A stretch of 64,000 nt of DNA, taken from positions 2,048,001-2,112,000 of the forward strand of contig CAWIAD010000002.1 of the NCBI GenBank assembly GCA_963833985.1. The letters are read 5' to 3'. The translations under genes were made by a program, and so were the position numbers. The notes beneath the pieces are model-generated. The model had not been told where the DNA came from. It saw nothing but the letters and a program-made list of their open reading frames with translations, and ran no database searches. This document shows, piece after piece, positions 42,716 to 61,629 of this stretch (the stretch's first letter is position 1; each line of letters starts with the position of its first letter). The stretch is from an uncultured Planctomycetaceae bacterium. GTDB lineage: Bacteria > Planctomycetota > Planctomycetia > Isosphaerales > Isosphaeraceae.

Positions 42716-45700
42716 TCAATCGGTTTGTTGAGTTTTCAGTCGATCGACAAGCTGAGTCCCCTTGCCCAGGTCTGCCGCCTGCAATTCTTCAACTCTCCAT
42801 GGCGGGGCCGCCTCTCTCAATCGACGCCGGATGAAACGGTCCCTTCGGTAACGCTGTCCCGTGTGGAAGGCAGCACCGTCGATGTAGATGGCGAGACGTC
42901 TCTCCGGCACAGCGAAATCGGCCACTGAGATCGGCCCTTCTGAATCAGACGGGCCAATTGGCACTTGCTTCATCGGCGTGAAGCCATGTTGCTCGAAGAG
43001 TCTCAGGAACTTCAGTTCGAGCGGTGAGCCAACACCAGCCTCGAAGGCTTCGAGCCAGGGCCGTGGATCTTCGATGTCCCCTGTCTCCAGCCGACGGGAT
43101 TTCGGTTCGAGGTGAGCCAGCTCTTCCAGGACGTCCATGACCTGGGGCCATTTCAAGGACTCGTGGAACCGCTGGTTCTGATAAGACTTCAAACACCGAT
43201 AACAAGCCGTTTCGCAATCCGGGTGATCCAGATGCTCGATCGTCCTGCGAGCAACCGAGTGGAACTCGTCGGCAATCCTCCGAAGGTAGCCCGATCCTCC
43301 CAGGCTGGGATCGACGAACGCCAGGGAGATCATGTTGTACTGTCTCCCCAGGTCGGAGTGGAGCCATGGCCCCTCCATCTCGAAGTCAAGTTCATTGGCC
43401 CCCAGCATGCAGTAGTGCTGCATTCCGTATAACAGTGAGTAGCCAAGCGAAAGTCCCCAGGAGAGCCATTGATCGTCATCGAGGACTTGCGGCACCGGAA
43501 GCAAGAGGCGAAGTATCTCAGCCTGTCCCGCAGTCGTGATTGCCAACGGGGTCGGATTCTCCGCTCTTCTAGGGCAGGCGTCGCTATGCCCATTGTTGTC
43601 GTGAGGTCCCTGGTTGCCTGCCGCTCTGCGACGTCCGCCTCTCGGCTCTCGTTCGACCGGTGGTTGGGTCAAAATTCGGCCACACGAGGGGCAGAGCAAG
43701 TATCCCTTTGCCTCAGTGTGCAGAACGGCGACCCCTTGCTCGATCTCCCGGGGAGACGGTGTCTTCCCCTCATTAAGCCAGCGAACCCCCTCGTTCTGAC
43801 ACAATCGGAGGGCCCAGCCGGTCCCGATTGTCCAGCGTGCTACGACATTGCCGTCCCATTGAGGGTGGGTCCTGACCAGATTTCGCTCGGCGTAGCGTTC
43901 TTCCTCATCGAGGACGGGGTTCTCATTCCGAGCGGCGACAAATCCCGCGAACTCGTACGAGGGGAATGCTCTCCCAGGTGCGGAATGTCCACAGCGGGGA
44001 CACTTTGGTTCATCCGCGTGGTAACGGAGGTTGCAGGCATTGCATAGACGATATGACCAACTTGGTCCCTCGCTCTTCGGATTCCATGGCGAAGATGTGT
44101 CGAGGCCAATGACCTTCCAGCGTCGAGTGCGAGCATAGACGCTGGCTTCAGGTTGGAACTGGCCGATCCCAAAGCGTCGGGTCACGGTAACCGGGTCGTC
44201 CTCGTGGGCATCGCCTAAGAGTCGCAGAGAGGCTGGTTCGGTCGGGAACTCATAACCTGGTAGAATTCCGAACTCGGCGAAGCGGCGGAGCGGATACCCC
44301 GCGGATCGGTCATCGGCTTCAACTCCGCCCCTCTGCTGATCATTCGGCATGCCGAGCAACCGGCTGATGAGATTCCCAGCCTGCATCGCGGAATACGGGT
44401 GGTCGAGTCCCTCGGCGTAGGTCGCGACGGTTTGATGAAGCTGGGCAACCTGATAGGCGGTGCATTCGATCACATATTTGATCTTCTCGGGTAATCGCTC
44501 CAGTTGTTCGCGGAGTTGCTCTGGTTCCCATCGCACCACAGCAAGGACGTCGGCTTTCCACGCCTCGTTGGCGACTGCGAGGGCGTGGTCGATTTGGGCC
44601 TTCACGGCCTCGATCAGTGCGTTGACGGCGTCCCATTTGACCTCACCCTTGGGACTGACATAGTCAAACATTCTCCCGGCCAATCCCGGCTCCGCTGCAC
44701 CAAAGACGATTGCGTTCAGATGGCGGATCAGCACGTCTCGGTTGCCGAGTGAGACAGCCGGAGCGGGCACTTCACCAGCGATCATCTCCCGCGGCTTATC
44801 GAAGAAATACTGATCATGCGGCGTGCTGCGTGAGTAACTGACCACTAGCCCCACTCGCGATCGTCTACCGGCACGTCCGCCACGCTGAGCATAATTATCC
44901 GGACGGGGCGGTATGTTCCTCATGATGACTGCGTCAAGGCCGCCAACGTCGATTCCCATCTCGAGAGTCGGCGAGCACGCGAGAACGTTGACTGGTGAGA
45001 CTTCCGGCGGTGCTTTGAAGTTTTCCTCCAGCTTCGCCCGATCACCGGTCGTGATCTGGGCTGTGTGCTCACCTGCCACAAGTGGGACGGCCTCGGGTTT
45101 GCGAATGTGTCTCACCCAGCGGCTCTCGGCGACATCACTGTCCGACCATCGGACGAACTTGCCATGGCACCGTGGACAAGGCGACCGGGGACTTACACCC
45201 GAACGTGCATGGCCACAAACGTCGCAATGGAATCGTCCGTCTTCCTTCAGAAGTTCCAGCTTGACGACATCGGCATTGAGCTGAATGAGCTTGGCCCTCT
45301 GGCTGGCACCACAGAGGTCGACTGCGGTGAGAAAATTGCCACGTTTAAGGAACATGAGAAGCTCAACCATGAGGTTCTCGGTCGGCTCTTGCGTGCCGAA
45401 TCGATCACAGAGGTGTCGAAGGATCGCCTCCAAGCTTGGAGCTCGGCCTCCTGTCCCGGGTCTCCTCCAGGCATTATGGCACCGAATCCCAAAGGGGATC
45501 TCGGCCGCGTTGATGTACGGGAGTGGATTCCCCGCATCGTCCGCGGGATATCCCTGAGGCTGGGCGATCCGGCGTTCCCACTCGGCTTCCCTGAAAAACT
45601 TCGGGCAAGCAGGGTGTCGAGGGTGGTATCGAAGCATGTCGCGAGAGAGGGCCGCCCGCGTGCGGAACTCATCGAGGAAGACCAGGAGGATGTGCTCCAG

Positions 45701-48043
45701 GTTCTCTGGAGTGACCCCGAGCCGTTGCATCAAGTCTCCGCCCCTCGTTTTCACGTACTCGTCAAGGCGATGGTATCGGATACCAGCCAAACCGAGGTTA
45801 AAGAGCGTGGCACGATATCCGGCTGTGACGGCGATCTCGTCGAGGAGTGGTGCTTCCTCCCAGGCCTGAATCCGTTCCAGTGCTGCGTCCGGAACCCAGT
45901 CTGTATGCTCTGGAACGTGAGGATTGTCGTGATGAGTGACGGCCTCTTCTCGAAGCAGCTCGACGGCTCTCTGAAGTGTCAGAGCCGGCTCTGATTCGAG
46001 GATCTTCATGATCAGTCGTCTCATCCGATCGTAGCGGCTCGCGAACTGGATGAAACGGGCCTGGTGAGCCGCGTCTTGGCGGCTATCACTGAAAACGAGC
46101 AGCCGTTCCTTTCCGTCGTGATTCGGGTTTGACTGATTAAGTTCAGCAAGAATCTCAACAAGTCCCTCACCGAGCACTTTGACCGCAGCCGATGTCCCGA
46201 GACTGACCGGTGTGATGATGTTATGGCTTCCGCCCGGTTTGCCGCAGCAGACGCAGCGAGTACGTGCAGGGACAAGGGTCACGTTGAGCGAATAGCAGCT
46301 CGGGTCGCGGCTGAATTTCAAAGTCCATGGATCGAGCGAGCCATTCAAAATGGGGCGTTGACGGACCTGCTCAGGCATACGGTTCGGTCTGCGGGCTCGT
46401 GGCCTTTGAGGTGCGTCCTCTTCGTCCTGGTCATCATCTTCCGTCACCCCTCGGCTCTCGAACCGATCAGGCTGGTAGATCATCCATTCCGGACCATCAG
46501 TCTCAACTGCACTCGGTCGCAATGTTTCGTTTCCATCGTCCAGATCGCCGACGACGCGAAGATAGTCGGCCCCGCAATTGCGGCACAAATAGAGAGGAGC
46601 CGTGAGGAAATGGCACTCCTGACAATGCTCCTCTCCCATGGGATAGACTTTCCCACACGAGGGGTTCGTGCACCGGTGGAACTTCCAGCCTCCCCTGACA
46701 AAGCGGTGCGTACGAAGGCGAAGTTCCCCCGTAACCTCATCCGGAAGGGCGGCACCAAGGACGAGAGCCGATTCCACTTCCGCATTCAGGAGGTCATCAG
46801 CAACATCGCGTCGGTCGGCCACCTCGGACCGGACTTGCTGGACAATCTGGCTCAGGGACATCGGCCTTTTGATGAGCCAGTGGTTCATGTCCCAGAGCAA
46901 TCGATACCGGCGAACGGCATCGGCGAGCGGTGTGTCCAAGGGGAGGTTGGCAAGGCGACACAGCGATGAGCGGACGACCTCGGGATCGGAAAGGTCGAGC
47001 AATTTCAGGTCGACCGAGCCGGGTGATGGCGGGTAAAGAGCCTCGCTCGGGATCTCGATTTCCTGTAGCTCCTCACCGAGAACGCGGATTGTGGACGTCT
47101 GAACGCCGGTCAGGATACTGAAGAACTCTTGGACCGCCTGGTCGCGTACCTGAATCACTTGCTCCTGGGGTAGCCCCTCCTCGTCCATGCTTTTGATGGT
47201 CGCCGATGTGCCCACTGGGACAAGCAGGGGAAACCGACGAGACTGCTCATCAGCGGAGACCTCAACTCGCCAATCTTGCCGAGCACGGGCCAGGTGGGTC
47301 TTGAGACGCCGAACCAAGAGGGCGATGTTGCTGCCGAGGATCCCTCTGTAGGTGTGAACTTCGTCGAGCACAAGAAATCGGCAGCGATGATTGGCGAAGA
47401 TCCCCTCGCGGTCTGCGGGCCTGACGAGCAGGTATTCCAGCATCATGTAGTTGGTCAAGAGGATATGCGGCGGGTTCCGACGCATCTCCTCCCGCTTGGC
47501 CTGCGATGTTCCTCGATCGTATTGTTCGACGCGAATTGCCCCCGCGAGACCAGATGCGGAGAGGTAGTCCTCGATCCTCTGCTTCTGGTCATTTGCCAGG
47601 GCATTCATCGGATAAAGGAGGATAGCGGTCAGCCCGGCTCTGGTGTAGCGGGTGGCATCCTCGAATGCATTCTGTATCACTGGGAGGAGGAATGCCTCGG
47701 TCTTGCCGCTCCCGGTCCCCGTAGTGATCACGACCGGGACGGGCTGAGGTCCGAGTAGTTCCTCAATCGCCTCGGATTGGTGGATATAGGCTCGTCGCTG
47801 CAGTGTCCTGGCTTCCATCACCTCGGCCAGCTTCCTGTCGAGAGGCAATTCAGTCCATAGCTTGCCCTGTTTGAAGGGGCGATGAGCCTGGTAGAACGGC
47901 TCCTGGGCGAGGAATCGAGGAGCATCTAGCTCGCGTTCGAGTGCGGATCGCAACTCGGGATCCTTGGCCCGAAACTCGGTCCTCAGATAGTCGCGGTATT
48001 CTTGAATGACGTGATCCAGGGCTCGGATCGGGTGAAGGGCCAT
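42716..48043 (-). CDS. Large DEAD/DEAH helicase with Zn motifs, DUF1998 and a C-terminal Vsr/DUF559-like nuclease
   Basis: TGTGSGKT, YPMNALANDQ, DEVH, FSDSRQDAA, TLEMGID, QRGGRAGR, CETACYRCL and ADF...IDG..FH. Confidence 0.88.
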   Translation of the reverse strand: MALHPIRALDHVIQEYRDYLRTEFRAKDPELRSALERELDAPRFLAQEPFYQAHRPFKQGKLWTELPLDRKLAEVMEARTLQRRAYIHQSEAIEELLGPQPVPVVITTGTGSGKTEAFLLPVIQNAFEDATRYTRAGLTAILLYPMNALANDQKQRIEDYLSASGLAGAIRVEQYDRGTSQAKREEMRRNPPHILLTNYMMLEYLLVRPADREGIFANHRCRFLVLDEVHTYRGILGSNIALLVRRLKTHLARARQDWRVEVSADEQSRRFPLLVPVGTSATIKSMDEEGLPQEQVIQVRDQAVQEFFSILTGVQTSTIRVLGEELQEIEIPSEALYPPSPGSVDLKLLDLSDPEVVRSSLCRLANLPLDTPLADAVRRYRLLWDMNHWLIKRPMSLSQIVQQVRSEVADRRDVADDLLNAEVESALVLGAALPDEVTGELRLRTHRFVRGGWKFHRCTNPSCGKVYPMGEEHCQECHFLTAPLYLCRNCGADYLRVVGDLDDGNETLRPSAVETDGPEWMIYQPDRFESRGVTEDDDQDEEDAPQRPRARRPNRMPEQVRQRPILNGSLDPWTLKFSRDPSCYSLNVTLVPARTRCVCCGKPGGSHNIITPVSLGTSAAVKVLGEGLVEILAELNQSNPNHDGKERLLVFSDSRQDAAHQARFIQFASRYDRMRRLIMKILESEPALTLQRAVELLREEAVTHHDNPHVPEHTDWVPDAALERIQAWEEAPLLDEIAVTAGYRATLFNLGLAGIRYHRLDEYVKTRGGDLMQRLGVTPENLEHILLVFLDEFRTRAALSRDMLRYHPRHPACPKFFREAEWERRIAQPQGYPADDAGNPLPYINAAEIPFGIRCHNAWRRPGTGGRAPSLEAILRHLCDRFGTQEPTENLMVELLMFLKRGNFLTAVDLCGASQRAKLIQLNADVVKLELLKEDGRFHCDVCGHARSGVSPRSPCPRCHGKFVRWSDSDVAESRWVRHIRKPEAVPLVAGEHTAQITTGDRAKLEENFKAPPEVSPVNVLACSPTLEMGIDVGGLDAVIMRNIPPRPDNYAQRGGRAGRRSRVGLVVSYSRSTPHDQYFFDKPREMIAGEVPAPAVSLGNRDVLIRHLNAIVFGAAEPGLAGRMFDYVSPKGEVKWDAVNALIEAVKAQIDHALAVANEAWKADVLAVVRWEPEQLREQLERLPEKIKYVIECTAYQVAQLHQTVATYAEGLDHPYSAMQAGNLISRLLGMPNDQQRGGVEADDRSAGYPLRRFAEFGILPGYEFPTEPASLRLLGDAHEDDPVTVTRRFGIGQFQPEASVYARTRRWKVIGLDTSSPWNPKSEGPSWSYRLCNACNLRYHADEPKCPRCGHSAPGRAFPSYEFAGFVAARNENPVLDEEERYAERNLVRTHPQWDGNVVARWTIGTGWALRLCQNEGVRWLNEGKTPSPREIEQGVAVLHTEAKGYLLCPSCGRILTQPPVEREPRGGRRRAAGNQGPHDNNGHSDACPRRAENPTPLAITTAGQAEILRLLLPVPQVLDDDQWLSWGLSLGYSLLYGMQHYCMLGANELDFEMEGPWLHSDLGRQYNMISLAFVDPSLGGSGYLRRIADEFHSVARRTIEHLDHPDCETACYRCLKSYQNQRFHESLKWPQVMDVLEELAHLEPKSRRLETGDIEDPRPWLEAFEAGVGSPLELKFLRLFEQHGFTPMKQVPIGPSDSEGPISVADFAVPERRLAIYIDGAAFHTGQRYRRDRFIRRRLREAAPPWRVEELQAADLGKGTQLVDRLKTQQTD

Positions 48044-48094
48044 GGTACCAATCTCCACTTCGAGACGCCGGAACACTATTTGTTTGGACGGGCT

Positions 48095-49147: not shown

Positions 49148-50977
49148 TCATTCATGGACTGAAGTGCTGTTCCCTGTCAGCGGCCCGCCGAACTCACGCA
49201 AGACTTCCTCGGAGTCACGACCCGCGACAGCCTTGCCCATTGCCCCTTCGATCAAGTCAAGCAATCGTCGAGCCCGGTCTCGGATGAACTCCTCGAAACC
49301 GTCAGACCGCAGCAGAGCGGGATCGATCTGATGGCTCTGAAGGATTTCATCGAGGCGGGTTCTGGGCATATGGTGGTTTTGCTCGATCGACTTCAGGTAG
49401 GAGCTCGGGGCCTTACCCCCGATAATTCGATTCGACCTGGCAGAGAGCGGGGCCTTGTTGACGGCACTGTTCCAGTGGCTCCTGCGGTACTTCTGCTTCT
49501 CGCAAAAGGCTTTGGGAAAAATGTGGTGGATATCGATATTCATGTCGAAGTAAGCGGCTATCTCGATGGAATCGCCGCTCAAGAAGTCGTGACTTCCCTC
49601 CTTCATGAGCAGGGCCATAAGACCCTTGTAAGCCGCACTGAGACGGGACTGAAGGGTGAGCAACCTCGTTGGGCTGAACGACGCATCGCGGATTGTGCGA
49701 GGCGAGTCACCACCATGGATCCAGGCGATGACATCAGGGACATCGAGTGCGAAGCGAGTCTCGTTGGCTCCGCCGTAGAGCTCGCCAAAAACGCCAGACC
49801 AGAACCATTGAGCCAGCTTCTTGTGGACGGTGTCCTCGTCAAACCCCTTGTCGATGATGGCACAAATGGAAGCGAGGGGAATAAGTTGGGTTGAGTAAGG
49901 AAGAGACTTCGTGTCAAGGACCTTCTGGCGGGTGAGGAATCTCGCGGTCTTCTTCAGGCCCCGCTCTATGGCGTCGGCGTTCTCCTGGTATTCAGCGAGG
50001 CTGAGCTTCAACACGTCCCGCCGCTTGCACGAGACGGCCAGTTCGGGGTGTAGAGTCGCTCTTTTGTAGCTCGTCAACAGAGTCACCGCGGTCAGGAAAG
50101 CCGTTGCGTCGAGCTCCTCTAGGACCTGGTGCTCATTGATGCGGTTCTTCCGCTTCTCCCAGTCGCTTCGGAGATTGAAATTGTCGGCAGCAAAGATCGC
50201 GGTAACAAGTTCGAAGACGGTAAGCGTAACACCGCCCGTGTTGACCTTCTCGAAAACCTGGCAAACAGCTTCCTTGGGCGTATCCCGAAGAAGCTCGATC
50301 GTCGGGATGCGATAATCCTGGAACCGCTTGAAGACTTCGATTTCGAATCGTTGTATGCGGGCAATTCGCAGGTGATCGCCTTGAAATCGCGTTTCATACC
50401 CGTGCCGCCATTCAAAATAGCGAGAATGGTCGAAGATCGCTTCCAGAGGGAAGTACCCCTGCTCGTACTCCTTTTCAACCGAGCTGAGATCAAGCTCGAC
50501 CTTGCGTCCGAAATCGGAAGTGATCTTACGGTCTGATGGCAAAGAAAGGACGGCATCGATGCGGTCCTCGCCTTCGGCGAGGCACTTGGCGATGTCGAGA
50601 TAGTAAAAACGGTGGATCGGGTCGCCCTTCTCGGTTCGCGTGGGAACGGGTTTCCCGCTGACCAGGGCGAGAAAGAGCGATGTCATTCTCTGCTGACCAT
50701 CGAGGATGAGCCGATCGGGCTTCTTGCTGGGATTGGCCGAGACCCCCTCGACCAGTCTGGGCTGGAATTGAGCCCCGTCCCCACCGGTCTGCAACAGCAT
50801 CACTGCCCCGATTGGATAGGACATTGAAATGCTTGCAATCAAAGACCGAATGTGATCATCGTCCCAGACCCAGCCACGTTGAAAATCGGGCAGTTGGATG
50901 TCGGCCGACTGGATCTCCCTGAGAAGATCAGGAAGCGATGGTTCACCGGATCTGAATGTGCTGTTAATGGCGGGCAT
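49148..50977 (-). CDS. GmrSD-family type IV restriction endonuclease (DUF262 + HNH/DUF1524)
   Basis: PDFQRGWVW, LDGQQR, FEKVN and DIHHIFP...N...SN. Confidence 0.88.
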   Translation of the reverse strand: MPAINSTFRSGEPSLPDLLREIQSADIQLPDFQRGWVWDDDHIRSLIASISMSYPIGAVMLLQTGGDGAQFQPRLVEGVSANPSKKPDRLILDGQQRMTSLFLALVSGKPVPTRTEKGDPIHRFYYLDIAKCLAEGEDRIDAVLSLPSDRKITSDFGRKVELDLSSVEKEYEQGYFPLEAIFDHSRYFEWRHGYETRFQGDHLRIARIQRFEIEVFKRFQDYRIPTIELLRDTPKEAVCQVFEKVNTGGVTLTVFELVTAIFAADNFNLRSDWEKRKNRINEHQVLEELDATAFLTAVTLLTSYKRATLHPELAVSCKRRDVLKLSLAEYQENADAIERGLKKTARFLTRQKVLDTKSLPYSTQLIPLASICAIIDKGFDEDTVHKKLAQWFWSGVFGELYGGANETRFALDVPDVIAWIHGGDSPRTIRDASFSPTRLLTLQSRLSAAYKGLMALLMKEGSHDFLSGDSIEIAAYFDMNIDIHHIFPKAFCEKQKYRRSHWNSAVNKAPLSARSNRIIGGKAPSSYLKSIEQNHHMPRTRLDEILQSHQIDPALLRSDGFEEFIRDRARRLLDLIEGAMGKAVAGRDSEEVLREFGGPLTGNSTSVHE

Positions 50978-51026: not shown

Positions 51027-52100
51027 TCACCTGCTTGAATCCGCAGGACGTGAAGTGGCAATCAGACGAGCTTCGCCGGAGATGCTCGTAGATACAACGT
51101 GCCACCTACGCTGATCGTCTGTCTCATCCTCGTCGATAGTCAACATTGCTGGCCATTCTCCATCCAACTCGCGGGTCAATCTGTCCTCCATGTCTTGTTT
51201 TCCGAGGACGCTTTGCCAGAGCTCCTCACCTGGATTGAATAACTGACCCAGTGCGTCTATTGCCGGTTGCCCACCGAGAAGGTGTTCAAGGAGCGACAGT
51301 CCTACAACTGGCTCGCCTGGCACGAAAGGCTCCCCTTCGGAATCACCGAGTGGAGTGGGACGTGACCACAATCGAGTGGAAAGCTCCCAGAGACCTGATC
51401 GGAAGGTTGCCCAAGACAAAGCGATTATGTCCATATGGCAACGAGTAACAAGCACCTGATCCAAGGGGACCGGCGAGTCCGGCGAAACAGGCTTAATTAT
51501 TGATTCTGCTGGAGCCGCGGAGTCGGAGAGTGGCAAGAGCCGAACGGAGTCTGGAAGACCACGGCGTAGTGTTTCAGCAGGAGTCCAAGTCAGGCACTGT
51601 TGATACCAGTCCAACATTTCACCCTGAAGTCGATGGACTCCGAGCTCGACAAGGTCACGCAATCGCAAACGAGGAAGTACCGGAAGCATCACTTGGCGTT
51701 CCGGCCAATAGCAGAGCAGTCGCCGTGTGCGACGCCAGATGGGAGGGCCTACGTCCTCGGAGCTGAAACGTGGGGCCCCTTTGGGGATGGTCCACCGACC
51801 GGCTGAATCAACTGTCAGGCCCCCGAGAAGTTGAATGTTGCCTAGAATCAGTTCTACTACCGGGTCCGGAAGATGAAGCAGTACTGCGATCTGCTCTGAT
51901 GTTGGCTGACCGAGGAGCGAAACCGCTTCTTGGATGAAACCGCGGAGCGGGTTATGAGGCGGTGGAGATCCTGCGAGGATAGGGGTTTCGAATAGAACGA
52001 CGTCGAGCGGGTCCGGGGCAATCGCCAAGATCATGCGGCCCACGGTCTCGTCTACTTTCCGAAGAAGTCGCTCTACTATCCGCCAACGCTCCGGTCGCAT
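51027..52100 (-). CDS. Hypothetical protein with N-terminal winged HTH
   Basis: PTSEQIAVLLHLPDPVVELILGNIQLLGGL..GRWTI; starts 3 bp after the helicase stop. Confidence 0.65.
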   Translation of the reverse strand: MRPERWRIVERLLRKVDETVGRMILAIAPDPLDVVLFETPILAGSPPPHNPLRGFIQEAVSLLGQPTSEQIAVLLHLPDPVVELILGNIQLLGGLTVDSAGRWTIPKGAPRFSSEDVGPPIWRRTRRLLCYWPERQVMLPVLPRLRLRDLVELGVHRLQGEMLDWYQQCLTWTPAETLRRGLPDSVRLLPLSDSAAPAESIIKPVSPDSPVPLDQVLVTRCHMDIIALSWATFRSGLWELSTRLWSRPTPLGDSEGEPFVPGEPVVGLSLLEHLLGGQPAIDALGQLFNPGEELWQSVLGKQDMEDRLTRELDGEWPAMLTIDEDETDDQRRWHVVSTSISGEARLIATSRPADSSR

Positions 52101-52103
52101 CCG

Positions 52104-55007
52104 CTACACCCGCCACTTGGCTTTCCAGTCCGATGGGACTGGGAGAAAACCGCCACGAGATCTGGAATACTCAAGTAATTTGGACAGGTCGTGGGAGGTT
52201 TTTGCTTCTGAGGCCGTACGGTCGATTCGGTCCTCGGCTCGTTTTACCGTCGAGCCGTCAATCAGCACGATCAATCTAGCTCTGGCTCGAGACAAGGCGA
52301 CGTTGAGACGCTGCCTATTGTCCGCAAAGCCAAAAGCACCTTTGTCATTACTTCGTGTAGACGAAAATATGATCAAATCCTTCTCCTGTCCTTGGAAACT
52401 ATCCACGGTGCCTATCTGCAAGCTGCCTCTAGGAATCAGTTGCTTTAAGACCGCATCATACTCGGCCCTGGCTACCAATTCCTCAACCTGCCGCTTGTAG
52501 GGTGCGATGACGCCGATCGAAAATGGGCCTGAATTGGCACCAGATATTTTATGTTGATGCCAGCAGGGTAATCTGGCAAATGATCGCAGTAGGTGGATTG
52601 TTAGTTCGCATTCGGAAGCATTGAAGAATCCATAGCCCCGCTCATTGGGCTGCTCTGAGGGATCTCTCAGCCACCCCGTGTCAAGTACCAAGAGCCTCGG
52701 TTCCATGGGGAGAAAGGACGGACAAGGGATCGATTGCTCGGACGCATGAGGAAAATCACCCAGCTCTCCCCCATAGAAGTGCGAGACAAAACCGGAGATA
52801 TCCGGATGCATGCGACCTTGCCGGTCCAAGAAGACATAGCGTCCAATTTGCTTAAACGGGCCTTCTAGCTCTTCGAACAAAGAACGCGTCACAATCTCGG
52901 GATCGAGGCCTTCCTCGCTCAAACGGCGTTTCAGTGAATCGTCGGCGTATGGCGGAAGCTGTTGGTGATCGCCGACCAGTACCCAACGCTCGCCTCGAAT
53001 CAGAGGGACTAACAGCCGACGAGCTTCTTCTTTTCCGGCCTCGTCGACGATGACGTAATCGTAGACTGCAGCTCTAACCTCTCGTGTTGCACAACCGATC
53101 GTCGTGGCACACACGAGGTTTGCATTAGCCAGCAGCAGTTCAGAGAAAAAACGCGGGTTCGTTTGTAGAAAGTTCAGCCAGTGCTCTAGAAATCGAAGGC
53201 GATCCTCCGGACTAGTGCCCCGCGTATGCCAATGTTTCCAGGCCGATGCCCTCCCATCTTGACCTGTGACGCTTTCCGCCCACTCTGGGTCTAAGTCATG
53301 TGGCCAAACCGAACGCCATCCCATCTCCGGCAGTTCTCCCTGGGATAACGCCGTTGTCCAGGCATTTTTGTCCTGCTCCGCACCTGCTCCGAGGATGTCC
53401 AACATTAGACGGTCGAGTTTCAATTGCTCACGAGCGGCGAGAGCGTCTCTAGCTACTTGGTCCTCCAATCTTCCCCTATACTCCGTGTTAAGGCAGTCCG
53501 GTGTGCATGCACGCAGATTGTGAGCGATCTTTCGAGTTGATCCGACACGATAAGGCCCGACCCCAAGCTCTGTAAGCAGGTTTACACCTCGTCGAGGTGC
53601 GACGAGCCTCTCGAGGACGTTATCTACTGCGACGTGGGTAGGTGCAACCAGCAAAACTCTGAAGCTGGGAACCTTCCCGTGTGCACGGAAGAGCTGTCTC
53701 AGGATTTCGAGGATCACCGTCGTCTTACCGGTGCCAGGGGGCCCCTGAATCAATACCATGTCCGGACTGAAAACTGCCGCTCGAACGGCTTCCTCCTGGC
53801 GAGGAGAGAGCTGGAAAAGCGGCGGTGTAGGCAACTCTGGCCATGGCTGAGAGATTGGCTCGAGTTTAGATGGTTCTGATAGGATGCCTTGGAGGGTTCG
53901 GACAGAAGTATCATCAGGATCCAACTCATGCTCTGCAATGGCTCGCTGCTGCGGGCCGATTTGCTGGTTTGGATCGAGCACGTCCAAGGCTTCACCGATT
54001 CGCCTCAGCTGGCTGTCTGGCAGGTACAGCTCTGGTTGCAACTTATCGCCATTCTGAAAGCCGTCACATAACCGATCAAGCAAAGCTCGACCCTTCGAAT
54101 CTCGACAACATACCTTGAGGACGAGCTCGTCGGCTTCGACCGTAATAGATTCGATACCGAGAAGGGCAAAATCCTCCCCGACCGTAAGCTTTAACTTATG
54201 GTGCTCCCAGGTCACACCCTCCGGCTTCTCTGCCTCGAGTTGCTCGATCCACTCTTGGACCTCATCTTGTTGCTCTGGGATGAGGACGTAATGCGGCTCA
54301 GTAATGACAGGATCATCCTCACCTAGCTTTTGAAGTCTCGTTACGCCCACCTCGCTCAGATCCTGTTCCAGTTCGCACACGCGTCTCCAAGTTGCTATCC
54401 GTTCTGAAAGCTCCGGGGAATCGCCGTCAAGCTGCCGTCTCACGATCTGGATCTGGTCCGATCTTTCGTGCACGCGGTTTTGCAGCACAACCAGATCTCT
54501 GAGAAGTGCTTCAGCGTTCCCATCCAAAGGAGCCTGGTTATGCCTCCATCTGTCCCACCGAGCGTCGACTCGCCCGAATCCAGAGGGGCAGCCCAGTGTG
54601 TTTCTGCGGACGCACTGCAGAGTCCAGTCGGATTGACCAAGCACGACGACGTCATTGCCGGGAGGGAGTTCTGGATCAAGTAATAACCGAACCTCGATCT
54701 GGCCACCTGCAATCGATCCGATGATAGAGCGACCTTTGTCGGTTGTCGGTTCAATATCAAAAACCTCTATCCCTTTGCTTAGCTCTTGGAGGAATGAATC
54801 TCGGGTCATTCCCAAGGCGAGAAGATCCCTTTCCTTTCGGTCTAGATTGAACACTCGGAACGGCCCGCCAAGAACGGGGGCGACAGCTGCTTGTTCGTCC
54901 TGCAGTAGTCGAAGTACGTCATATTGAGCTGCGGCAACTGAACCACGTAGCAAGTATTGAGACAGGGGAAGGTTGCGAAGACCGGTGGTCACATCAGATA
55001 AGTTCAT
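52104..55007 (-). CDS. Upf1/DNA2-like superfamily 1 helicase
   Basis: QGPPGTGKT, APTHVAVDN, DEAG, GDHQQLPP, RMHP, TVDSFQGQEKD and RLNVALSRAR. Confidence 0.9.
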   Translation of the reverse strand: MNLSDVTTGLRNLPLSQYLLRGSVAAAQYDVLRLLQDEQAAVAPVLGGPFRVFNLDRKERDLLALGMTRDSFLQELSKGIEVFDIEPTTDKGRSIIGSIAGGQIEVRLLLDPELPPGNDVVVLGQSDWTLQCVRRNTLGCPSGFGRVDARWDRWRHNQAPLDGNAEALLRDLVVLQNRVHERSDQIQIVRRQLDGDSPELSERIATWRRVCELEQDLSEVGVTRLQKLGEDDPVITEPHYVLIPEQQDEVQEWIEQLEAEKPEGVTWEHHKLKLTVGEDFALLGIESITVEADELVLKVCCRDSKGRALLDRLCDGFQNGDKLQPELYLPDSQLRRIGEALDVLDPNQQIGPQQRAIAEHELDPDDTSVRTLQGILSEPSKLEPISQPWPELPTPPLFQLSPRQEEAVRAAVFSPDMVLIQGPPGTGKTTVILEILRQLFRAHGKVPSFRVLLVAPTHVAVDNVLERLVAPRRGVNLLTELGVGPYRVGSTRKIAHNLRACTPDCLNTEYRGRLEDQVARDALAAREQLKLDRLMLDILGAGAEQDKNAWTTALSQGELPEMGWRSVWPHDLDPEWAESVTGQDGRASAWKHWHTRGTSPEDRLRFLEHWLNFLQTNPRFFSELLLANANLVCATTIGCATREVRAAVYDYVIVDEAGKEEARRLLVPLIRGERWVLVGDHQQLPPYADDSLKRRLSEEGLDPEIVTRSLFEELEGPFKQIGRYVFLDRQGRMHPDISGFVSHFYGGELGDFPHASEQSIPCPSFLPMEPRLLVLDTGWLRDPSEQPNERGYGFFNASECELTIHLLRSFARLPCWHQHKISGANSGPFSIGVIAPYKRQVEELVARAEYDAVLKQLIPRGSLQIGTVDSFQGQEKDLIIFSSTRSNDKGAFGFADNRQRLNVALSRARARLIVLIDGSTVKRAEDRIDRTASEAKTSHDLSKLLEYSRSRGGFLPVPSDWKAKWRV

Positions 55008-57148
55008 GCTTCGCCCCGCTTTGACAAGCCTACGGCGACTCTAAAGCCGACTGGCACGGTGAAGGCTCCTGTCAAAGGTTCCATTGCCGATCGGTTGACA
55101 AGACCGAAGTCAGCTAGAGGTTTCTCAGGGGACCGGCCACGCACGACACGAAGTGCCTCATCTTCCCTGCTGGAGGTCGCTTCGACAAAAGGATCGAAGA
55201 TGGATGGAAAGCGGCGGTAGGCCTCCTCGTGAAACACATCCATTGTCCACTCGAGCAAGTGGCAGGCACGTATCCCGAACGGCGAAAGAGCACCCTCTAC
55301 CCAAACCTCGCCACTCGGATAACGACGCTCATCCTCTACTCCCCTGACCGCTTTCTCCCACTGTACTTCTGTGGGCAAGTGTCCACCTTCAATCGCCCCC
55401 CGAGCATATGCTTGAGCCGCGAACCAGGTGATATGGCTCGCATATTCATGATCAGTAACTAAATCACCGGGTCGCACCTGTACAGGGAAGAATCCCCGTT
55501 CAACACGTAGTATTCCACCATGCTGCTTTAGCCACCTGTCGAAAGCCTGTTGGGGGACGGGGTCCACATCGATCAAGTAGCTGCTGACGTGGACTCTACG
55601 CATCGGCGAGGTCACGTTGCTGTGATCGTCACCCCGAATGAAGGAACCAGAGGCAACCAAGACCATGAGCCCACCGTCGGATGGTCTCCGGAATCTCAAC
55701 GGCTGGCCTGGCAGGGCCGGGACAGGTTCTAGTCCAAGTTTCTTAACACGGGAGCCAAGGTCATTCGCCAACCTTGATCGTATAGGTTCCCGAGTAAGGA
55801 CACGATCACGGGACTGGAGGATTCGGTCGGTTTGCTTGAGAGTGAATCCTGCCTGGACGTCGAGATGTCGAGTCTGCTCATCCAGCAACCTCAGATCCTC
55901 CTCTTGCCCGAGAAACTCTGCAGCCTGACAGGCAGCGATCAAAAGGACTGGGCGGTTCGGTGATCTGGCGAACAAATCTCGGAGGTAACCACGAAGCCTC
56001 TCCCCCCTCTCTCTGTCTTGATATGTTCCGCGTATGCCCGGTGCTGGCCGAGATGGGAGAGATTGCCCACTGGCGATCATAGCAGCGGTCGATTCAACTG
56101 CCTCTGCTAGCCGATGATCAGAATGAGAGTCAGGCTGCGATCGATCCAGCTCGAGCAACTTCCCGAGGTGGTCGAGGAGCCAGCCGGCAATCCAATCGCT
56201 CGCAGCGGGTTCAGACTTCCAACAAGTTTCAGGATTGGCGGGCACGACCTCTCCGACGCCGATACGCTGGGTGTATATCCTCTCTAAAGCAGCAATCGCA
56301 CCACGGCAGCAATCGGGTGACGACGTAGTCGGTGTCCATTCCGGACCGGACAGCTCGACCTGGAGATAGGGTAAGGCGACTGCACCGATTCGCTCTGCCT
56401 TCATGAGCAGCACGACCTCATGCGGCTCGGGCACCGTTCCATCGCTAAACTCAGAGTGAGCTGCATATGGTGTACCGAGTCTTGGCTCATCCGTGAACAG
56501 GCTGGCAACATAGTTTTGTCGCTGCTTTCCCCGCTGGAACCAAGCGAGGACGAGAGCAATGACGACTGCCGAGTAGAAGGAAGAGAGAAGGAACATCGAC
56601 CACGTCGGCCATGCATCATCCCTGGGGATTCCCAAAACTAACACGAGCTTGCTAAGGACCACTGTCACGGGTGGCAGAGGAGCAACGGCCTGAATTAGAT
56701 TCGTCCGTAAGGCCGGCCCATATGCGGCAAGTCCCAGTGCGGCTAGGAGAACACCAACGAAGATGGAAAATAAGACGACCGCCGTGCAGGGAAATCGCAG
56801 GAGCCACGCGAAATACCTGGAAATCCTGGGGCGTGCACTCGCCCGAAGATCCTCATAAGCGACCTCGGCTTTGAGGTACTTGAGAACTTTGAGGAAGCTG
56901 CAAGTCATGAGCACCGGTGGAACTACGGCGGCGAAGGCCAAGAGAATCAATCCCGGTGTAACGGGCGATCTTCTCTCCGCCGGAAGAACCTGCGAGATGA
57001 GGAAAGCTGCCAAGAAGAGTGCACCCGCAACTCCTAGGTCAGTCCACAAATCAGTGTTCAGCCATTGGTATTTCACCCTTCTCCAATATCTGCCGACAAT
57101 CCGGATGATACGTTCTACAACTGTTTCAGCGTAATTAGGGCGAACCAT
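55004..57148 (-). CDS. Multi-pass membrane protein with C-terminal FGE-sulfatase (C-lectin-fold) domain
   Basis: 4-5 hydrophobic segments in aa ~35-205; GSFIRG, LPTEVQWEKA.RG, SPFG, EW, RVVRG and GFR. Confidence 0.8.
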   Translation of the reverse strand: MVRPNYAETVVERIIRIVGRYWRRVKYQWLNTDLWTDLGVAGALFLAAFLISQVLPAERRSPVTPGLILLAFAAVVPPVLMTCSFLKVLKYLKAEVAYEDLRASARPRISRYFAWLLRFPCTAVVLFSIFVGVLLAALGLAAYGPALRTNLIQAVAPLPPVTVVLSKLVLVLGIPRDDAWPTWSMFLLSSFYSAVVIALVLAWFQRGKQRQNYVASLFTDEPRLGTPYAAHSEFSDGTVPEPHEVVLLMKAERIGAVALPYLQVELSGPEWTPTTSSPDCCRGAIAALERIYTQRIGVGEVVPANPETCWKSEPAASDWIAGWLLDHLGKLLELDRSQPDSHSDHRLAEAVESTAAMIASGQSLPSRPAPGIRGTYQDRERGERLRGYLRDLFARSPNRPVLLIAACQAAEFLGQEEDLRLLDEQTRHLDVQAGFTLKQTDRILQSRDRVLTREPIRSRLANDLGSRVKKLGLEPVPALPGQPLRFRRPSDGGLMVLVASGSFIRGDDHSNVTSPMRRVHVSSYLIDVDPVPQQAFDRWLKQHGGILRVERGFFPVQVRPGDLVTDHEYASHITWFAAQAYARGAIEGGHLPTEVQWEKAVRGVEDERRYPSGEVWVEGALSPFGIRACHLLEWTMDVFHEEAYRRFPSIFDPFVEATSSREDEALRVVRGRSPEKPLADFGLVNRSAMEPLTGAFTVPVGFRVAVGLSKRGEA

Positions 57149-57279: not shown

Positions 57280-60200
57280 TCATCTCTCCTTCGTTTTTCG
57301 TCTTCGTCTCGGCCCATCTGTCAGACGAAAGGAGTCAACCTCGGTACGTTCACTTGCCCCTTGTTGGGTATCCAACTCGATGACCGGCTGGGGGAGATTC
57401 TCGTTCAGCGGGATGTCCCAATAGGGGTCATGTTTCTTGGTGAAGGCCTCAAGACCGATGACCTTCAGCTCGTCGAACATGGCCATGCAGAGGTCGGGGG
57501 TCTTGGGGTAGCTCGTGTGTTTGAAGGTCGAGAGTAGGTGGATGTACTGATCGCGTGAGACGCCGTAAGCGGTGGCGACGACGGCGTCGATTGCGGCACG
57601 GACCTGCCATCGCTCATCAACGGAGTCTAGTACGGGCCAGGTCCATGGCCGCCTGTTCGGCTCACGCCAAAAATCGGTGAGTTGCTCACGCCAGAGTTGG
57701 GAATACCCGGCGTGATTGCAGCTTAGACGGAGGGCCGAGTGAGCTATCAAGACCGATAAGTTTCCTGAAGGGACAGGAGTGGCCAGCAACATGAAGAGGT
57801 TCAGATGAGATCTGACGCGTAACTGAAGTAGCCAGTCGAAACAGTAACTATTCAGAATAGCGAGAGCCCAAAGAGCAACGCTGTTAGGCCTATTGAAAGG
57901 TTCTGCCTCGAGCGGAGCAGTGTGCCCTGTCGTTACTCCTGGTGGATGCAAGTTGAATATCGCGACGTTTTCGTCGCCGGGCCCAGCGATATCCCGGAAA
58001 CCGACTCGAAAGTGCCGTGCCCTCCGCAGGATAATCGGCCTATCCTCCAGCTTCCATGTTGCGACCAGATACCTTGGAGCAGCACCCCAGTGATCGTCGT
58101 ATTGCCTAAATGTTTTTCCTTCATGTAGCACAAGGTAGCCGCGTTCGATGACTTGCGTAGCGATCGCAGGATCTCGGGTGTCCTCAGCATTTGGCAGAAT
58201 ATCGATGGTTGGCGTGAATCGCCATGCGTCATCCGTCATGTTAAGTTCTCGACCGAGCCGAATACCCAACCGTTCGCAAACTTGCCCAAATGGTTCTCCA
58301 TGAGCGAAGCAGGTCTCGGCGACTCTCAGATCCTTAGTCGAGCGGAGCTCCAACAGGCTCAGGTAATCGCCACCAGTGCGACGGATGAACCCAATGTCGT
58401 ATTGAAGCGGTTCACGCTCTCTGCGATCACTGAAAAGCCATTCGTCATCGTGTAGATAGAAGGCACAGGAAACGGAGTCCGTTGGGAGTCCTGCCTGAGC
58501 GACGACCGTCGCAAACTTGAAACTCGAATGGATCTCGAAGAGCTTACGGCGGTTCTCAAAGGAGTAGCAGTGCTTTAGGGCCATTCTGCCCAAGTAGAGT
58601 TGTCGAATGCCGGTTGCTCCCTCGTTTGCATGAAAGGCCGACGGCACAACGACACCTGTCCATCCATCAGTCTTCAAGAGCTGTGCGTTTCTCTCGAGAA
58701 AGACGCGGAAAGCATCCTGCTTGCCGATCGTTTTCTCTCCATTGATCTCGACTACCTGAAAGGCGAAGAGCTTGTCGAGAATGTTCTCGATGGAACGAAA
58801 GTCCGACAAATATCGCTCGTATTGAGCCTTGATGCTGAGACTCGACAGCAGTCGTTTCTGAATACCTGCCCGTTCACGCTTGGTTGGAGCATCGAGAATT
58901 GCGAACTCGAATCCAGCGAAGAACTCTTTATCCGCGGGTAACATCCTGTCCCAGGGCGGGTTTCCCAGAACGGCGTGGAAACCCTGACGTCCGTGAGGAA
59001 CGCCGAGCGGATAGAAGACCTCGGGGAAAGTGAGGTCGTAGGACAGAGCTGGAACGCATTGCGGTGAGGTTGCGGCCTTTCGGAAGACTCCACGATCGTC
59101 GGGAACGTCATCGAGCCCCAAACCTCGAGCAATCTGCCGACGGAGGGGGTCCGATTCCAAGGCTTCAGGAAGTCTGCCAGTGTCGCCGATAGTCCTGAGC
59201 AAGTCAGCGTACGAACGGTCATCGCAGTTATCTGTTCCCAGCATAACTCCGCCCGCCCAAGCTGCAGCTGCGATTCGGAACGGAAGTAGGGCCTGATCAA
59301 GTTGGGCCTTGACCGCCTCCTTTTCCTGTACCTCCGCGAGGTCCGACCCGACTGAAGTTTCCAGCCGGCGGACCAGACTGAGGGCCTGATTCAGGACCTT
59401 CTGGAGCTTGGCGTAAATCCCCTGGCTGAAGAGGTCCTCCAGCGGAGTATCCGGTTTGCCGGGTCGAAACAGCAGCTTGTCCCAGAACGGACCAGTCAGC
59501 GAGTCTCCAATGACTAGACGGTGATCGAGGAAGGTCAGCGGCATTCCCTCGGCATGCGACTCCAGCCACAGAGCGAGCTTGGCCAGCTCGACGGCGAGCG
59601 GGTTCTTGTCGACCCCATAAAGGCAGTGCACCGCGACCAAGCGGCGACAAATGGCCTGTGCTCGGGCGGTCGAGACTCCGGGCGATAATGACTTGCTGGG
59701 CAGGTAGCCTGTCACCAGTTCAAGAGCTTCATCCCTGCTCTCTCGAGGTGCGAACTCGGTTTTCGCCAACTCATCATCAGGATCGGGAACGTCAATGATT
59801 CGTTGTCGCCAGCTTTGACCGGCCTCAAAGGCTGCTGCCCGCTTCTCGTCGGTCTTGGCTGACTCGGCCTCTCGTTCCGCTTCCAGGGCTTTCTCATCGC
59901 AGGAACGACACGCTTCGTAGAGCTTCTCCCCGAGGAAACGACAGGCTTCCACGAGGAAATGCCCACTTCCCATGGCCGGGTCGAGAACCCTGAGCTTTAG
60001 GAGCTCGAGCGGATTGGGGTCGTTCTGTGGACTTCGTTCTTCAACCTGCGGCCCGAGCGTCTCCTGCACGAGGAACCGTACGAAGGAATGGGGCGTGTAA
60101 TAGGAGCCACTCGACTTCCGTCCCAGGCCGACTCGCAAGTAAAACCGGCGAGGTGGGATCTCCTCGATCCAGAGGACCTTCGTCTTCTTGGCCCGCCCGT

Positions 60201-61629
60201 TCGATTCCTCCTCTTCGTCGGGCTCGGTTTCGTCATCCTCCGTCTCCAGTCCTTCCGCAAGGTCCTGATCGACGGGACGAGCCGGGCGGTACTTTTCTCC
60301 CTGTGCGAAGGGTACAACCACTTCCAGCTTCTGCCGACGGAGCCGGCACATCGAATCTGTCGAGATCCCGGGGTCGAGCTCGAGCAGGGCCTCGTAGACA
60401 CGCCCGAGGTCCTCGACGTCAAGGGAGCCGTAATGCACTCGCTCTCGGGTCTCGCTCCCGCGTTTCTTCGGGGTCCAGAGCAATCGGTCGAGCAACCATG
60501 CGACGGCCCGCTCTCCCCAGGCACGCTCGGTCAGGATGGGAGTCGCTTCGGGACCGAACAGTTTACCCCCCAGCGGCTTCACCACGAGCTCCGTGCACTG
60601 AAGACCACGCTCGAACATCCGGAACAGGTTGCGGAGCCCCGATTCCAGGAGCCGACCGGTTTCCAGGCCCCGTTCGAGGACATCCCGTGCGTACGCCGAG
60701 AGGGCCATGCTGGGTGAAAACGAGTTCCGCCAAAGGCTCATCGACGCGAAGCTGAACGAACGAGCGGGGTCGTCGCTCGACTCCAGCTTGAGGATAAACA
60801 GAAGCCTGTAGACGGTGATGAGCCCCTCGTGCCAGAGGTTCTTGGCCAGAGCCGACCGGTCGGGGTGAGTGTTGAACCAGTCGCGGTTCTCGGGATGATC
60901 AATGACCTCCTGAATGAATCGCTCAACCGCTTCTCGTGCCTGAACTCGAAGTTCTTTCGTCACCCGAGCCTGCTGAAGTCGGGCTTTGTCCACGATCTCG
61001 GGTAAGGCATTCACTCCCTGGGGGCAGCCAAGTGCCAGAAGAAGGAGGAAGGAATCCGGGATCTCCCGGTGTCGCTTCCAGCCCGGGTCCAAGGAGACGA
61101 TGATCTGAGAGTCGAGCCGGGCAGGATCGGAGATCAGGAGGCGAAGCTCCACCCCGTTCGTGAGAATGCCCATCCTCTCACCGGTTGTGAGGAGCACACG
61201 CTGTGCGATCCGCAGATGACTGAAGCGATAGGCACGTCCCCTCTTGGCAGGGGAGTCCAGATCCTCATTGAACGACGTGGTCCAGACTCGTAGCTTTTCG
61301 CTTCCAGCGGACGAGACCAGGAGATTGCCACCCGACTCAAGGTCTTCGCGAGTCTGTACGTCATCCGTGGCAACCAAGCTCTGGTAACCGAGCAAATCAA
61401 TCAGGGGTTCGATCACTTTGTTTCGAACACGAAGCGGTCCGCCACTCGCGGCGAGTTCTTGAAGATGCCTCCGGTAAACGTCCCATCGGCTGCGGATCTT
61501 CTTCCCCTCGTCCCCAATCTTCTTCGGAATCAGCTTCCGATTGGTGAGTTCCTTCTCCAGCTCGAAGCGGACAAAAGGCTCGGGCAGAGCGGGACCGAGA
61601 AATTGGCAGTCCGACAGGTCAAGAGGCAT
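57280..61629 (-). CDS. Large N6-adenine DNA methyltransferase (DrmMI/type IIG-like)
   Basis: SGSYYTP, LDPAMGSGHFL, YGVDKN, GNPPW; N-terminal GILTNG; TRD-like C-terminus. Confidence 0.9.
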   Translation of the reverse strand: MPLDLSDCQFLGPALPEPFVRFELEKELTNRKLIPKKIGDEGKKIRSRWDVYRRHLQELAASGGPLRVRNKVIEPLIDLLGYQSLVATDDVQTREDLESGGNLLVSSAGSEKLRVWTTSFNEDLDSPAKRGRAYRFSHLRIAQRVLLTTGERMGILTNGVELRLLISDPARLDSQIIVSLDPGWKRHREIPDSFLLLLALGCPQGVNALPEIVDKARLQQARVTKELRVQAREAVERFIQEVIDHPENRDWFNTHPDRSALAKNLWHEGLITVYRLLFILKLESSDDPARSFSFASMSLWRNSFSPSMALSAYARDVLERGLETGRLLESGLRNLFRMFERGLQCTELVVKPLGGKLFGPEATPILTERAWGERAVAWLLDRLLWTPKKRGSETRERVHYGSLDVEDLGRVYEALLELDPGISTDSMCRLRRQKLEVVVPFAQGEKYRPARPVDQDLAEGLETEDDETEPDEEEESNGRAKKTKVLWIEEIPPRRFYLRVGLGRKSSGSYYTPHSFVRFLVQETLGPQVEERSPQNDPNPLELLKLRVLDPAMGSGHFLVEACRFLGEKLYEACRSCDEKALEAEREAESAKTDEKRAAAFEAGQSWRQRIIDVPDPDDELAKTEFAPRESRDEALELVTGYLPSKSLSPGVSTARAQAICRRLVAVHCLYGVDKNPLAVELAKLALWLESHAEGMPLTFLDHRLVIGDSLTGPFWDKLLFRPGKPDTPLEDLFSQGIYAKLQKVLNQALSLVRRLETSVGSDLAEVQEKEAVKAQLDQALLPFRIAAAAWAGGVMLGTDNCDDRSYADLLRTIGDTGRLPEALESDPLRRQIARGLGLDDVPDDRGVFRKAATSPQCVPALSYDLTFPEVFYPLGVPHGRQGFHAVLGNPPWDRMLPADKEFFAGFEFAILDAPTKRERAGIQKRLLSSLSIKAQYERYLSDFRSIENILDKLFAFQVVEINGEKTIGKQDAFRVFLERNAQLLKTDGWTGVVVPSAFHANEGATGIRQLYLGRMALKHCYSFENRRKLFEIHSSFKFATVVAQAGLPTDSVSCAFYLHDDEWLFSDRREREPLQYDIGFIRRTGGDYLSLLELRSTKDLRVAETCFAHGEPFGQVCERLGIRLGRELNMTDDAWRFTPTIDILPNAEDTRDPAIATQVIERGYLVLHEGKTFRQYDDHWGAAPRYLVATWKLEDRPIILRRARHFRVGFRDIAGPGDENVAIFNLHPPGVTTGHTAPLEAEPFNRPNSVALWALAILNSYCFDWLLQLRVRSHLNLFMLLATPVPSGNLSVLIAHSALRLSCNHAGYSQLWREQLTDFWREPNRRPWTWPVLDSVDERWQVRAAIDAVVATAYGVSRDQYIHLLSTFKHTSYPKTPDLCMAMFDELKVIGLEAFTKKHDPYWDIPLNENLPQPVIELDTQQGASERTEVDSFRLTDGPRRRRKTKER

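Follow-up and report, generated by a model that had tools for sequence, protein, structure and literature searches.

Among the closest described systems, Mokosh type I comprises a kinase-helicase and a PLD protein (10.1101/2022.05.11.491447, 10.1101/2022.12.12.520048), and in CoCoNuT systems the gene after a helicase of the CnuH family typically encodes an elongated winged helix-turn-helix (wHTH) protein fused to a nuclease, termed CnuE, CnuH itself carrying a RelE/colicin D-like (RTL) domain, the activity of which was left uncertain (Bell et al. 2024, PMC11090510). Domains of the formylglycine-generating enzyme (FGE) fold have been described as sensor types of defence STANDs (PMC13581612) and as C-terminal domains in conflict systems (PMC7159879). 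Here, a three-gene locus related to these systems was analysed in a window of 64,000 nucleotides, the whole stretch of DNA examined, from an uncultured Planctomycetaceae bacterium (contig CAWIAD010000002.1, positions 2,048,001 to 2,112,000). The locus, hereafter the trio, lies on the minus strand at positions 51027 to 57148 of the window and encodes, in order, a membrane protein with an FGE-fold domain (gene 1), a Upf1-like superfamily 1 (SF1) helicase (gene 2), and a wHTH protein (gene 3). The helicase and the wHTH protein constitute the known core of Mokosh I or CoCoNuT CnuH-CnuE type; what is new is that the kinase and the PLD or HEPN nuclease are gone, that a membrane FGE protein has been added, and that the predicted RelE-fold domains have multiplied.

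A conserved three-gene unit

Gene 1 (55004..57148, minus strand) encodes a protein of 714 aa, in which an anchor of four predicted transmembrane (TM) helices is followed by a helical domain and a non-catalytic domain of FGE/C-type-lectin fold. Gene 2 (52104..55007, minus strand) encodes the helicase of 967 aa with every motif intact, and gene 3 (51027..52100, minus strand) an elongated winged-helix protein of 357 aa. As read in the sequence, genes 1 and 2 overlap by 4 bp (ATGA), while genes 2 and 3 are separated by a 3-bp gap (TAG-cgg-ATG). The methyltransferase gene upstream ends at 57280, leaving 131 bp before gene 1. A motif scan of all three proteins found neither an HKD motif nor the HRD motif of kinases. 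The first-pass annotation had described three tightly coupled genes directly after a methyltransferase, with no kinase or HKD motif, and each of these points was confirmed. Junctions were measured in seven loci, the first being -4 bp in five of them and the second +3 or +4 bp in six; because the same junctions recur in relatives, the coupling is not a product of chance. Scans for promoters (2 versus 3.1) and terminators (7 versus 5.7) remained at chance level.

Searches retrieved 41 proteins for gene 3, 23 for gene 1 and 4 for the N-terminus of gene 2, self included. At the 22 loci drawn from the gene 3 alignment, the helicase gene lies directly upstream in 17; four further loci end within 170 bp of gene 3 or inside it, and one with a broken gene 3 (L102) has no helicase. 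Sufficient DNA before the helicase was available at 8 of the 17 helicase-bearing loci, of which 7 carry gene 1; it is not upstream in L100, where the helicase is spread over several frames. Two further complete trios were found, L218 in a member of the Thermoguttaceae (gene 3 about 31% identical) and L219. The same gene order, with the FGE gene adjacent, is therefore present in 9 of 10 other informative loci, corresponding to about eight lineages rather than nine since L082 and L084 are near-identical. The earlier concern that the FGE gene might not be conserved beside the helicase-wHTH pair is contradicted by this count, and the trio is a conserved three-gene unit. Frameshifts occur in the trio of L082 and L098.

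The trio is also rare and patchy. Its named hosts belong to the Gemmataceae/Gemmatales and the Thermoguttaceae, in addition to one broken gene 3 in Fimbriiglobus. The gene 3 profile found no member among 120 further genomes from the order, 13 of which belong to the same genus, nor in 400 genomes of a phylum sample; a wider profile matched strongly in 5 of 401 class-sample genomes, the window included, three of which were already in the alignment. No relatives were present in IMG/VR, and the 10.2-Mb host genome contains no paralogs of genes 2 and 3. The GC content of the window between 15 and 64 kb is 51-60% versus 65% for the genome, and GC at third codon positions (GC3) is 0.54-0.57 in the trio versus 0.65-0.71 in the neighbouring SNF2, methyltransferase, GmrSD and YprA genes. 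Elsewhere, the neighbours in L099 are a CRISPR I-G system, an integrase and a gene with weak TIR likeness; L219 has a type I restriction-modification (R-M) system, L098 portal/terminase and SNF2 genes, and L082 a D5 primase, and YhcG nucleases lie downstream in the partial locus L083. The trio is a mobile cassette, located for the most part near other defence or mobile genes.

Conserved order and junctions, defence and mobile neighbours, patchiness, the GC3 offset and the MkoA/MkoB matches described below together make anti-phage defence a likely function of the trio. Weighing against it are the trios of L101 and L092, which sit among housekeeping and metabolic genes. These, together with a separate effector-less pair of SF1 helicase and wHTH genes in a housekeeping-like context (L222, L223), would suit a module, rare in planctomycetes and located at the membrane, for RNA processing or stress response. 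Such a non-defence role is nevertheless distinctly improbable in view of the very patchy distribution, with 0 of 13 same-genus genomes positive, of a GC3 that is foreign to the host, and of the recurrent location next to CRISPR, R-M, ARMADA and integrated elements. On the other strand upstream of the Thermoguttaceae trio (L221:12335-18103, +), a 916-aa protein with a weak NYN/PIN match was observed, along with a zinc-ribbon PP2C phosphatase and a vWA protein, which are TerY-P-like components.

Domain architecture and proposed mechanism

The gene 2 product was matched by Pfam AAA_11/AAA_12 (E ~1e-37), and its best PADLOC family was MkoA (PDLC03920, E 9.6e-102). All helicase motifs are present, namely Q404, Walker A at 422, Ia at 455, Walker B at 655, III at 679, IV at 730, V at 867, and VI at 900. 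In a quick tree of 30 rows, the deeper nodes of which are weak (Shimodaira-Hasegawa-like approximate likelihood ratio test, SH-aLRT, 81-86), the helicases of trios group in a clade of their own (SH-aLRT 100), separate from the sampled Mokosh-like and TerY-P-linked helicases. Most relatives are about 1230-1260 aa long and possess a module of about 140 aa at the N-terminus in three copies; hhalign related repeats 1 and 3 with 96% probability, 1 and 2 with 94%, and 2 and 3 with 6%. Three tandem copies occur in 9 of 11 helicases, and one copy in the window and in L090. This single copy is a chimera, its front half corresponding to repeat 1 and its back half to repeat 3. The window and L090 helicases group as sisters (SH-aLRT 91), and three copies are present in the deepest member, for which a single collapse from three copies is the most economical account. 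A collapse of the repeats during assembly was rejected, as identity between them is only about 14-20% and L090 shows the short form as well.

The AlphaFold model of helicase residues 1-200 has a pLDDT (predicted local distance difference test) score of 83, with residues 1-48 forming helices. Comparison with 48,161 chains by VIA-align returned mostly helical hairpins, and the only alpha/beta matches in the best 50 were MqsR (Z 5.8, root-mean-square deviation (rmsd) 2.4, 74 of 91 aligned) and archaeal RelE (Z 5.5, rmsd 3.6, 78 of 88 aligned). A second comparison gave a Salmonella toxin-antitoxin toxin (Z 5.3), BrnT (4.7), HigB toxins (3.7-4.1), and the colicin E5-type sequence-specific RNase domain 3ao9 (Z 4.7). 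These matches are moderate but consistent, spanning the whole domain, and the helicase N-terminus is accordingly modelled as one to three predicted RelE/MqsR/BrnT (BECR)-fold domains, with one copy in the window at aa ~48-153 (54549..54866, minus strand). Pfam on the repeat alignment and a PDB sequence search gave nothing significant, and the ESM Atlas contained no usable match for this N-terminus. Residues ~165-345 (53973..54515, minus strand) are most likely an ordinary Upf1-type region of stalk helices and 1B beta-barrel, judging from their position before the Q motif, the model helix at 165-193 and the architecture in PMC11090510. The earlier proposal that an unrecognised N-terminus of about 330 residues may hide the effector survives in part: a candidate RelE/BECR fold was obtained, while only ~110 of ~340 residues are new. 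At aa 8-52 (window 54864-55007, minus strand), a highly conserved leader, LR.LPLS.YLLRG...GPFR, was observed in both one- and three-repeat forms, which is a candidate docking peptide for the FGE protein.

Gene 3 had no match in Pfam, PADLOC or NCBIfam, yet its AlphaFold model (pLDDT 84) confirms the winged helix that had been annotated. The wHTH core (aa 46-118; 51747..51965, minus strand; VIA Z 9-10.5) sits inside a long beta-rich scaffold with long flanking strands, and its best VIA match reached Z 10.5 with an rmsd of 1.1 over 57 residues. The gene 3 profile retrieved 31 proteins among 1.84 billion representatives, the full-length ones being 334-438 aa without long fusions; P0086 (2732 aa, 29 short matches) was left out of this length count as a repeat artefact. 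MkoB was the sole PADLOC family matched by the relatives (5 of 33, best E 0.0011), weakly and over the wHTH only (profile positions 16-77), the window protein itself having no match. No HKD motif exists in the window protein, with one unconserved match in 24 aligned relatives, and neither an HEPN motif nor a long fusion was found among the 31 profile matches. Foldseek against PDB gave no match with E < 0.001 for the model, a whole-model search by which residues 120-357 are barely tested. Gene 3 is inferred to be a CnuE/MkoB-like adaptor without recognisable nuclease. In the ESM Atlas, clusters of 392-424 aa, mostly from Actinomycetota (score 0.94-0.96, low recognition), offer only a lead.

Two further observations concern this protein family. 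After the wHTH, a cluster LP..PR.R.RD...H...Y (aa 139-166) is retained in relatives at 25-30% identity, and may be a candidate partner interface or cryptic active site. An SF1 helicase of ~976 aa and a wHTH protein of ~330-370 aa form a second, separate pair at L222:7470-11386 (-) and L223:6705-10867 (+), with no recognisable effector and housekeeping-like surroundings, and a similar wHTH gene is present in L226.

Regarding gene 1, the FGE-sulfatase domain (aa 481-714; 55007..55708, minus strand) was recognised by Pfam with E 1.3e-16. The four predicted TM helices (aa 36-204; 56537..57043, minus strand) exceeded a Kyte-Doolittle (KD) hydropathy of 1.6 in 16/18, 14/15, 20/20, and 19/20 rows, respectively, of 20 rows compared. 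The loop between TM3 and TM4 passed this threshold in only 2 of 20 rows, so that a model with five TM helices and an outside FGE domain was rejected. Mean numbers of Lys and Arg are 6.6 in the N-terminus, 0.9, 6.6, and 1.9 in loops 1 to 3, and 3.8 in the C-terminus. By the positive-inside rule, this pattern gives the protein two cytoplasmic termini, and the helical and FGE domains are predicted to lie on that side as well. The conserved soluble domain (aa 205-480; 55709..56536, minus strand) is HEAT-like by eye only, with no library match and no HEAT Pfam match in particular; its invariant features are PxxHE, H327, D344, C281, and C407. Column identity is highest in the FGE domain (0.77) and lowest in the TM region (0.63 versus 0.74-0.77). 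The 4-TM region is nonetheless kept in all full-length relatives, with E99 and P120 invariant and D37 and C121 near-invariant. A catalytic formylglycine-generating enzyme has a cysteine pair near its C-terminus. No CxxxxC motif is found here, nor any Cys column after C629 in 20 rows, and a catalytic FGE enzyme was therefore rejected. Diversification by a diversity-generating retroelement (DGR) was likewise rejected, since the last 497 bp of gene 1 match only themselves by blastn in their own genome. Other FGE matches in the genomes cover the FGE domain only, at ~25-36% identity. As for the membrane-anchored sensor or lectin initially envisaged, the anchor is upheld by four predicted helices, but the FGE domain is predicted to be cytoplasmic and is the most conserved part of the protein, not a diversified extracellular lectin.

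It is considered just short of an even chance that the three proteins form a complex tethered to the membrane, with the FGE protein gating an active helicase that supplies RNA to its own RelE-fold domain(s) and the wHTH protein serving as adaptor. By analogy with CnuH-CnuE and MkoA-MkoB, the helicase and the wHTH protein would form a complex of that type. The 4TM-FGE protein would replace the kinase of MkoA or the TerY-P regulator and would keep the complex quiet at the membrane, releasing it upon binding a phage protein or sensing stress of the envelope. Subsequently, the helicase would travel along RNA and deliver it to the BECR domain(s), which may cleave mRNA or tRNA so that translation stops. 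The effector would thus have shifted from the C-terminus of the wHTH protein, where PLD or HEPN resides in known systems, to the N-terminus of the helicase. The sensor role of the FGE protein is suggested because FGE domains serve as sensors in defence STANDs. The effector role of the BECR region is suggested by the fold matches, the precedents of the CnuH RTL domain and of a RelE-like domain in ARMADA, and the presence of R134, where the last BECR strand ends, and R107, on beta4, each in 8 of 11 helicase-proximal repeats. In RelE, an arginine of the last strand is catalytic. The catalytic residues of BECR proteins vary widely, according to a preprint (10.64898/2026.08.28.747851). A bolder form of this proposal is offered tentatively as possible, namely that a Upf1-like helicase bearing one to three RelE-fold RNases is controlled by a membrane FGE/lectin-fold receptor, that the system works without the Mokosh kinase and without PLD or HEPN, and that potency is tuned by toxin copy number.

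Several results weigh against this complex. All BECR Z-scores are below 8, and Foldseek against PDB gave no match with E < 0.001 for the helicase N-terminus model. Within the helicase, conservation is lowest in the BECR region (0.64), and the invariant residues of this region (G79, D127, W128, L130, A149, and W151) include no classical catalytic His, Arg or Tyr and look structural; as no catalytic residue is invariant, RNase activity is putative. Moreover, the gene 3 profile finds no MkoB-like proteins in loci L104-L107, its hhalign probability against TerY-P-linked wHTH proteins is 0.9%, and the conserved cluster R146-R148-D149-H156-Y166 in the C-terminal half of gene 3 could be a cryptic active site. 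With the BECR repeats lacking an invariant catalytic residue and tolerating copy numbers from one to three, the roles may be inverted. The helicase and wHTH protein would then detect stalled ribosomes or nucleic acid of the phage and cause the 4TM-FGE protein to oligomerise and depolarise the membrane, while the RelE-fold domains would act as inactive binders of RNA or ribosomes. Retention of the 4-TM region with its invariant residues, the lack of a nuclease motif anywhere in the trio, and an FGE domain showing conservation instead of diversification, which would be expected of a constant internal partner, agree with such an inversion. It is, however, rather unlikely: gene 1 is least conserved in its TM region, nucleases are used by all described relatives of the helicase-wHTH core, and the arginines on the BECR sheet are partly conserved.

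The surrounding operon

ARMADA is defined by a BrxHII-like helicase, a PglX-like methyltransferase and a single-gene YprA-like helicase with a C-terminal PD-(D/E)xK nuclease, and in type II ARMADA, ArmD, a RelE-like domain with a GajB/UvrD helicase, follows YprA (10.1101/2025.09.15.676423). This gene set is present in the operon that hosts the trio. On the minus strand, a BrxHII/DrmD-like SNF2 helicase of 1078 aa, assigned by family matches (61619..64000, its start lying beyond the window at 64855), precedes the PglX/DrmMI-like adenine methyltransferase (57280..61629), which is not part of the trio. After the trio follow a GmrSD-like protein (49148..50977, minus strand; likely start ATG 50977, 49 bp after the trio) and a fused YprA-like helicase resembling ARMADA ArmC (42716..48076, minus strand), a single open reading frame (ORF) of 1786 aa containing DEAD, MZB and a weak C-terminal match to REase_MTES_1575 (E 0.03). 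The best matches of these operon genes are DrmD, DrmMI and DruE. No ArmD follows YprA, the next genes past 42716 lying on the opposite strand. Class 1 DISARM has separate drmA and drmB genes and a drmC PLD gene; here, helicase and MZB share one ORF and the operon has no short DrmC. Assignment of the trio to DISARM was rejected, and the operon looks like ARMADA rather than DISARM, as far as gene content can indicate.

A close methyltransferase was found in six genomes of the class, and five of the six fetched regions are orthologous operons. All five carry other cargo between the methyltransferase and YprA genes and none carries the trio, so the trio is an inserted cassette, independent of the surrounding operon; in one of them (L238), a GmrSD gene 79% identical to that of the window directly follows the methyltransferase. 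At the nine other trio loci, no ARMADA genes were found within the flanking DNA examined. The nesting in a DISARM-related operon to which attention had been drawn is thus incidental. The same counts, 0/9 and 0/5, bear on whether the trio serves the ARMADA-like operon as an accessory, with its RelE-fold helicase standing in for ArmD. The shared domain logic of RelE-like domain and helicase, the missing ArmD-like gene after YprA and the co-orientation of the trio within the operon would fit such an accessory, but with those counts, a different GC3, and a helicase that is Upf1-like and not UvrD-like, it is highly improbable.

Other features of the island were observed. The methyltransferase-YprA slot of the orthologous operons holds different cargo each time (L236-L240: GmrSD, a 1229-aa helicase-like protein, and pairs of 662-732 aa and ~347 aa genes) and appears as a defence hotspot. 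An operon at 32680-39607 (-) encodes a 456-aa protein, a 704-aa PLD protein with ZacB/PDC-M27B-like matches and a 1149-aa SF2 helicase, representing a second candidate defence system. At 40174-42482 (+), genes for a protein of 252 aa and an actin/Hsp70-like ATPase of 517 aa overlap by 4 bp and converge on the YprA-like gene, and at 48095-49066 (-), between the GmrSD and YprA-like genes, a 323-aa protein has an HExxH motif (HEQAH) and no family match. Tandem near-identical genes at 12844-13617 and 14007-14738 (-), presumably Uma2-like nucleases from their look, mark the left edge of the low-GC island.

Comparison with known systems

The trio indicates that the Mokosh/CnuH-CnuE helicase-wHTH core can lose both kinase and nuclease and gain a membrane FGE protein. 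As the cassette has no other recognisable nuclease, it offers the cleanest natural test of the RelE-like RTL activity left open in the CoCoNuT paper, for which the natural one-copy and three-copy helicases supply a built-in comparison; it is equally a natural test of what is recognised by FGE domains in bacterial immune systems. In ARMADA-like operons, the stretch between methyltransferase and YprA is marked as a cargo hotspot. If the proposed mechanism is true, a membrane-localised, helicase-fed RNA decay machine would be a new three-gene immune architecture of planctomycetes. A literature search, most subscription journals being outside its reach, found no paper on this combination. The word helicase is absent from the accessible parts of PMC11980606 and of the BECR preprint 10.64898/2026.08.28.747851, 10.1101/2025.09.30.679545 contains no Mokosh, UPF1 or FGE passage, and the accessible supplements of the CoCoNuT paper have no FGE or Gemmata entry.

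The FGE-fold proteins of STAND and vWA-MoxR systems (PMC13581612, PMC7159879) share with gene 1 a C-terminal non-catalytic FGE fold in a conflict-like setting, whereas gene 1 has no STAND NTPase or vWA domain, is membrane-anchored and highly conserved, and lacks a DGR template repeat. In ArmD, as in gene 2, a RelE-like domain is coupled to an SF1 helicase, but ArmD is GajB/UvrD-like and follows YprA, while the trio helicase is Upf1-like and its cassette is cargo between methyltransferase and YprA.

With Mokosh I (MkoA-MkoB), the trio shares a Upf1-like (COG1112) helicase, the MkoA match reaching E 9.6e-102 at best; the wHTH near the start of gene 3 may also correspond to the N-terminus of MkoB, which relatives of gene 3 match weakly. 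In contrast, gene 2 has no Ser/Thr kinase (no kinase Pfam match, no HRD), gene 3 has no PLD and its relatives are 334-438 aa versus 610 positions in the MkoB profile, the system has three genes, and its helicases form a separate clade. With CoCoNuT II and III-A, the trio shares a Upf1-like SF1 helicase with a helical insertion after Walker A, a RelE/colicin D-like domain before the stalk (here predicted from a model, Z 4-5.8), an elongated wHTH gene after the helicase, as in CnuE, and regulatory genes that lie upstream within one operon. Unlike CoCoNuT, it has no McrBC-like pair of CnuB, an McrB-like GTPase, and CnuC among the 12-13 window neighbours and the 75 + 16 flank proteins of relatives scanned, no recognised HEPN or PLD on the wHTH protein, where CnuE is fused to HEPN, PLD or Vsr, and no TerY-P within the trio, and the N-terminal SmpB-like OB fold of CnuH in types II and III-A is missing, residues 1-48 being modelled as helices. 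It adds an upstream 4TM-FGE protein, and its predicted RelE-fold domain is triplicated in most members. The trio therefore belongs to neither Mokosh I nor CoCoNuT. The suggestion of a candidate new system goes too far: the helicase-wHTH pair has already been described as CnuH-CnuE and MkoA-MkoB, so the trio is a variant of that core and not an entirely new system.

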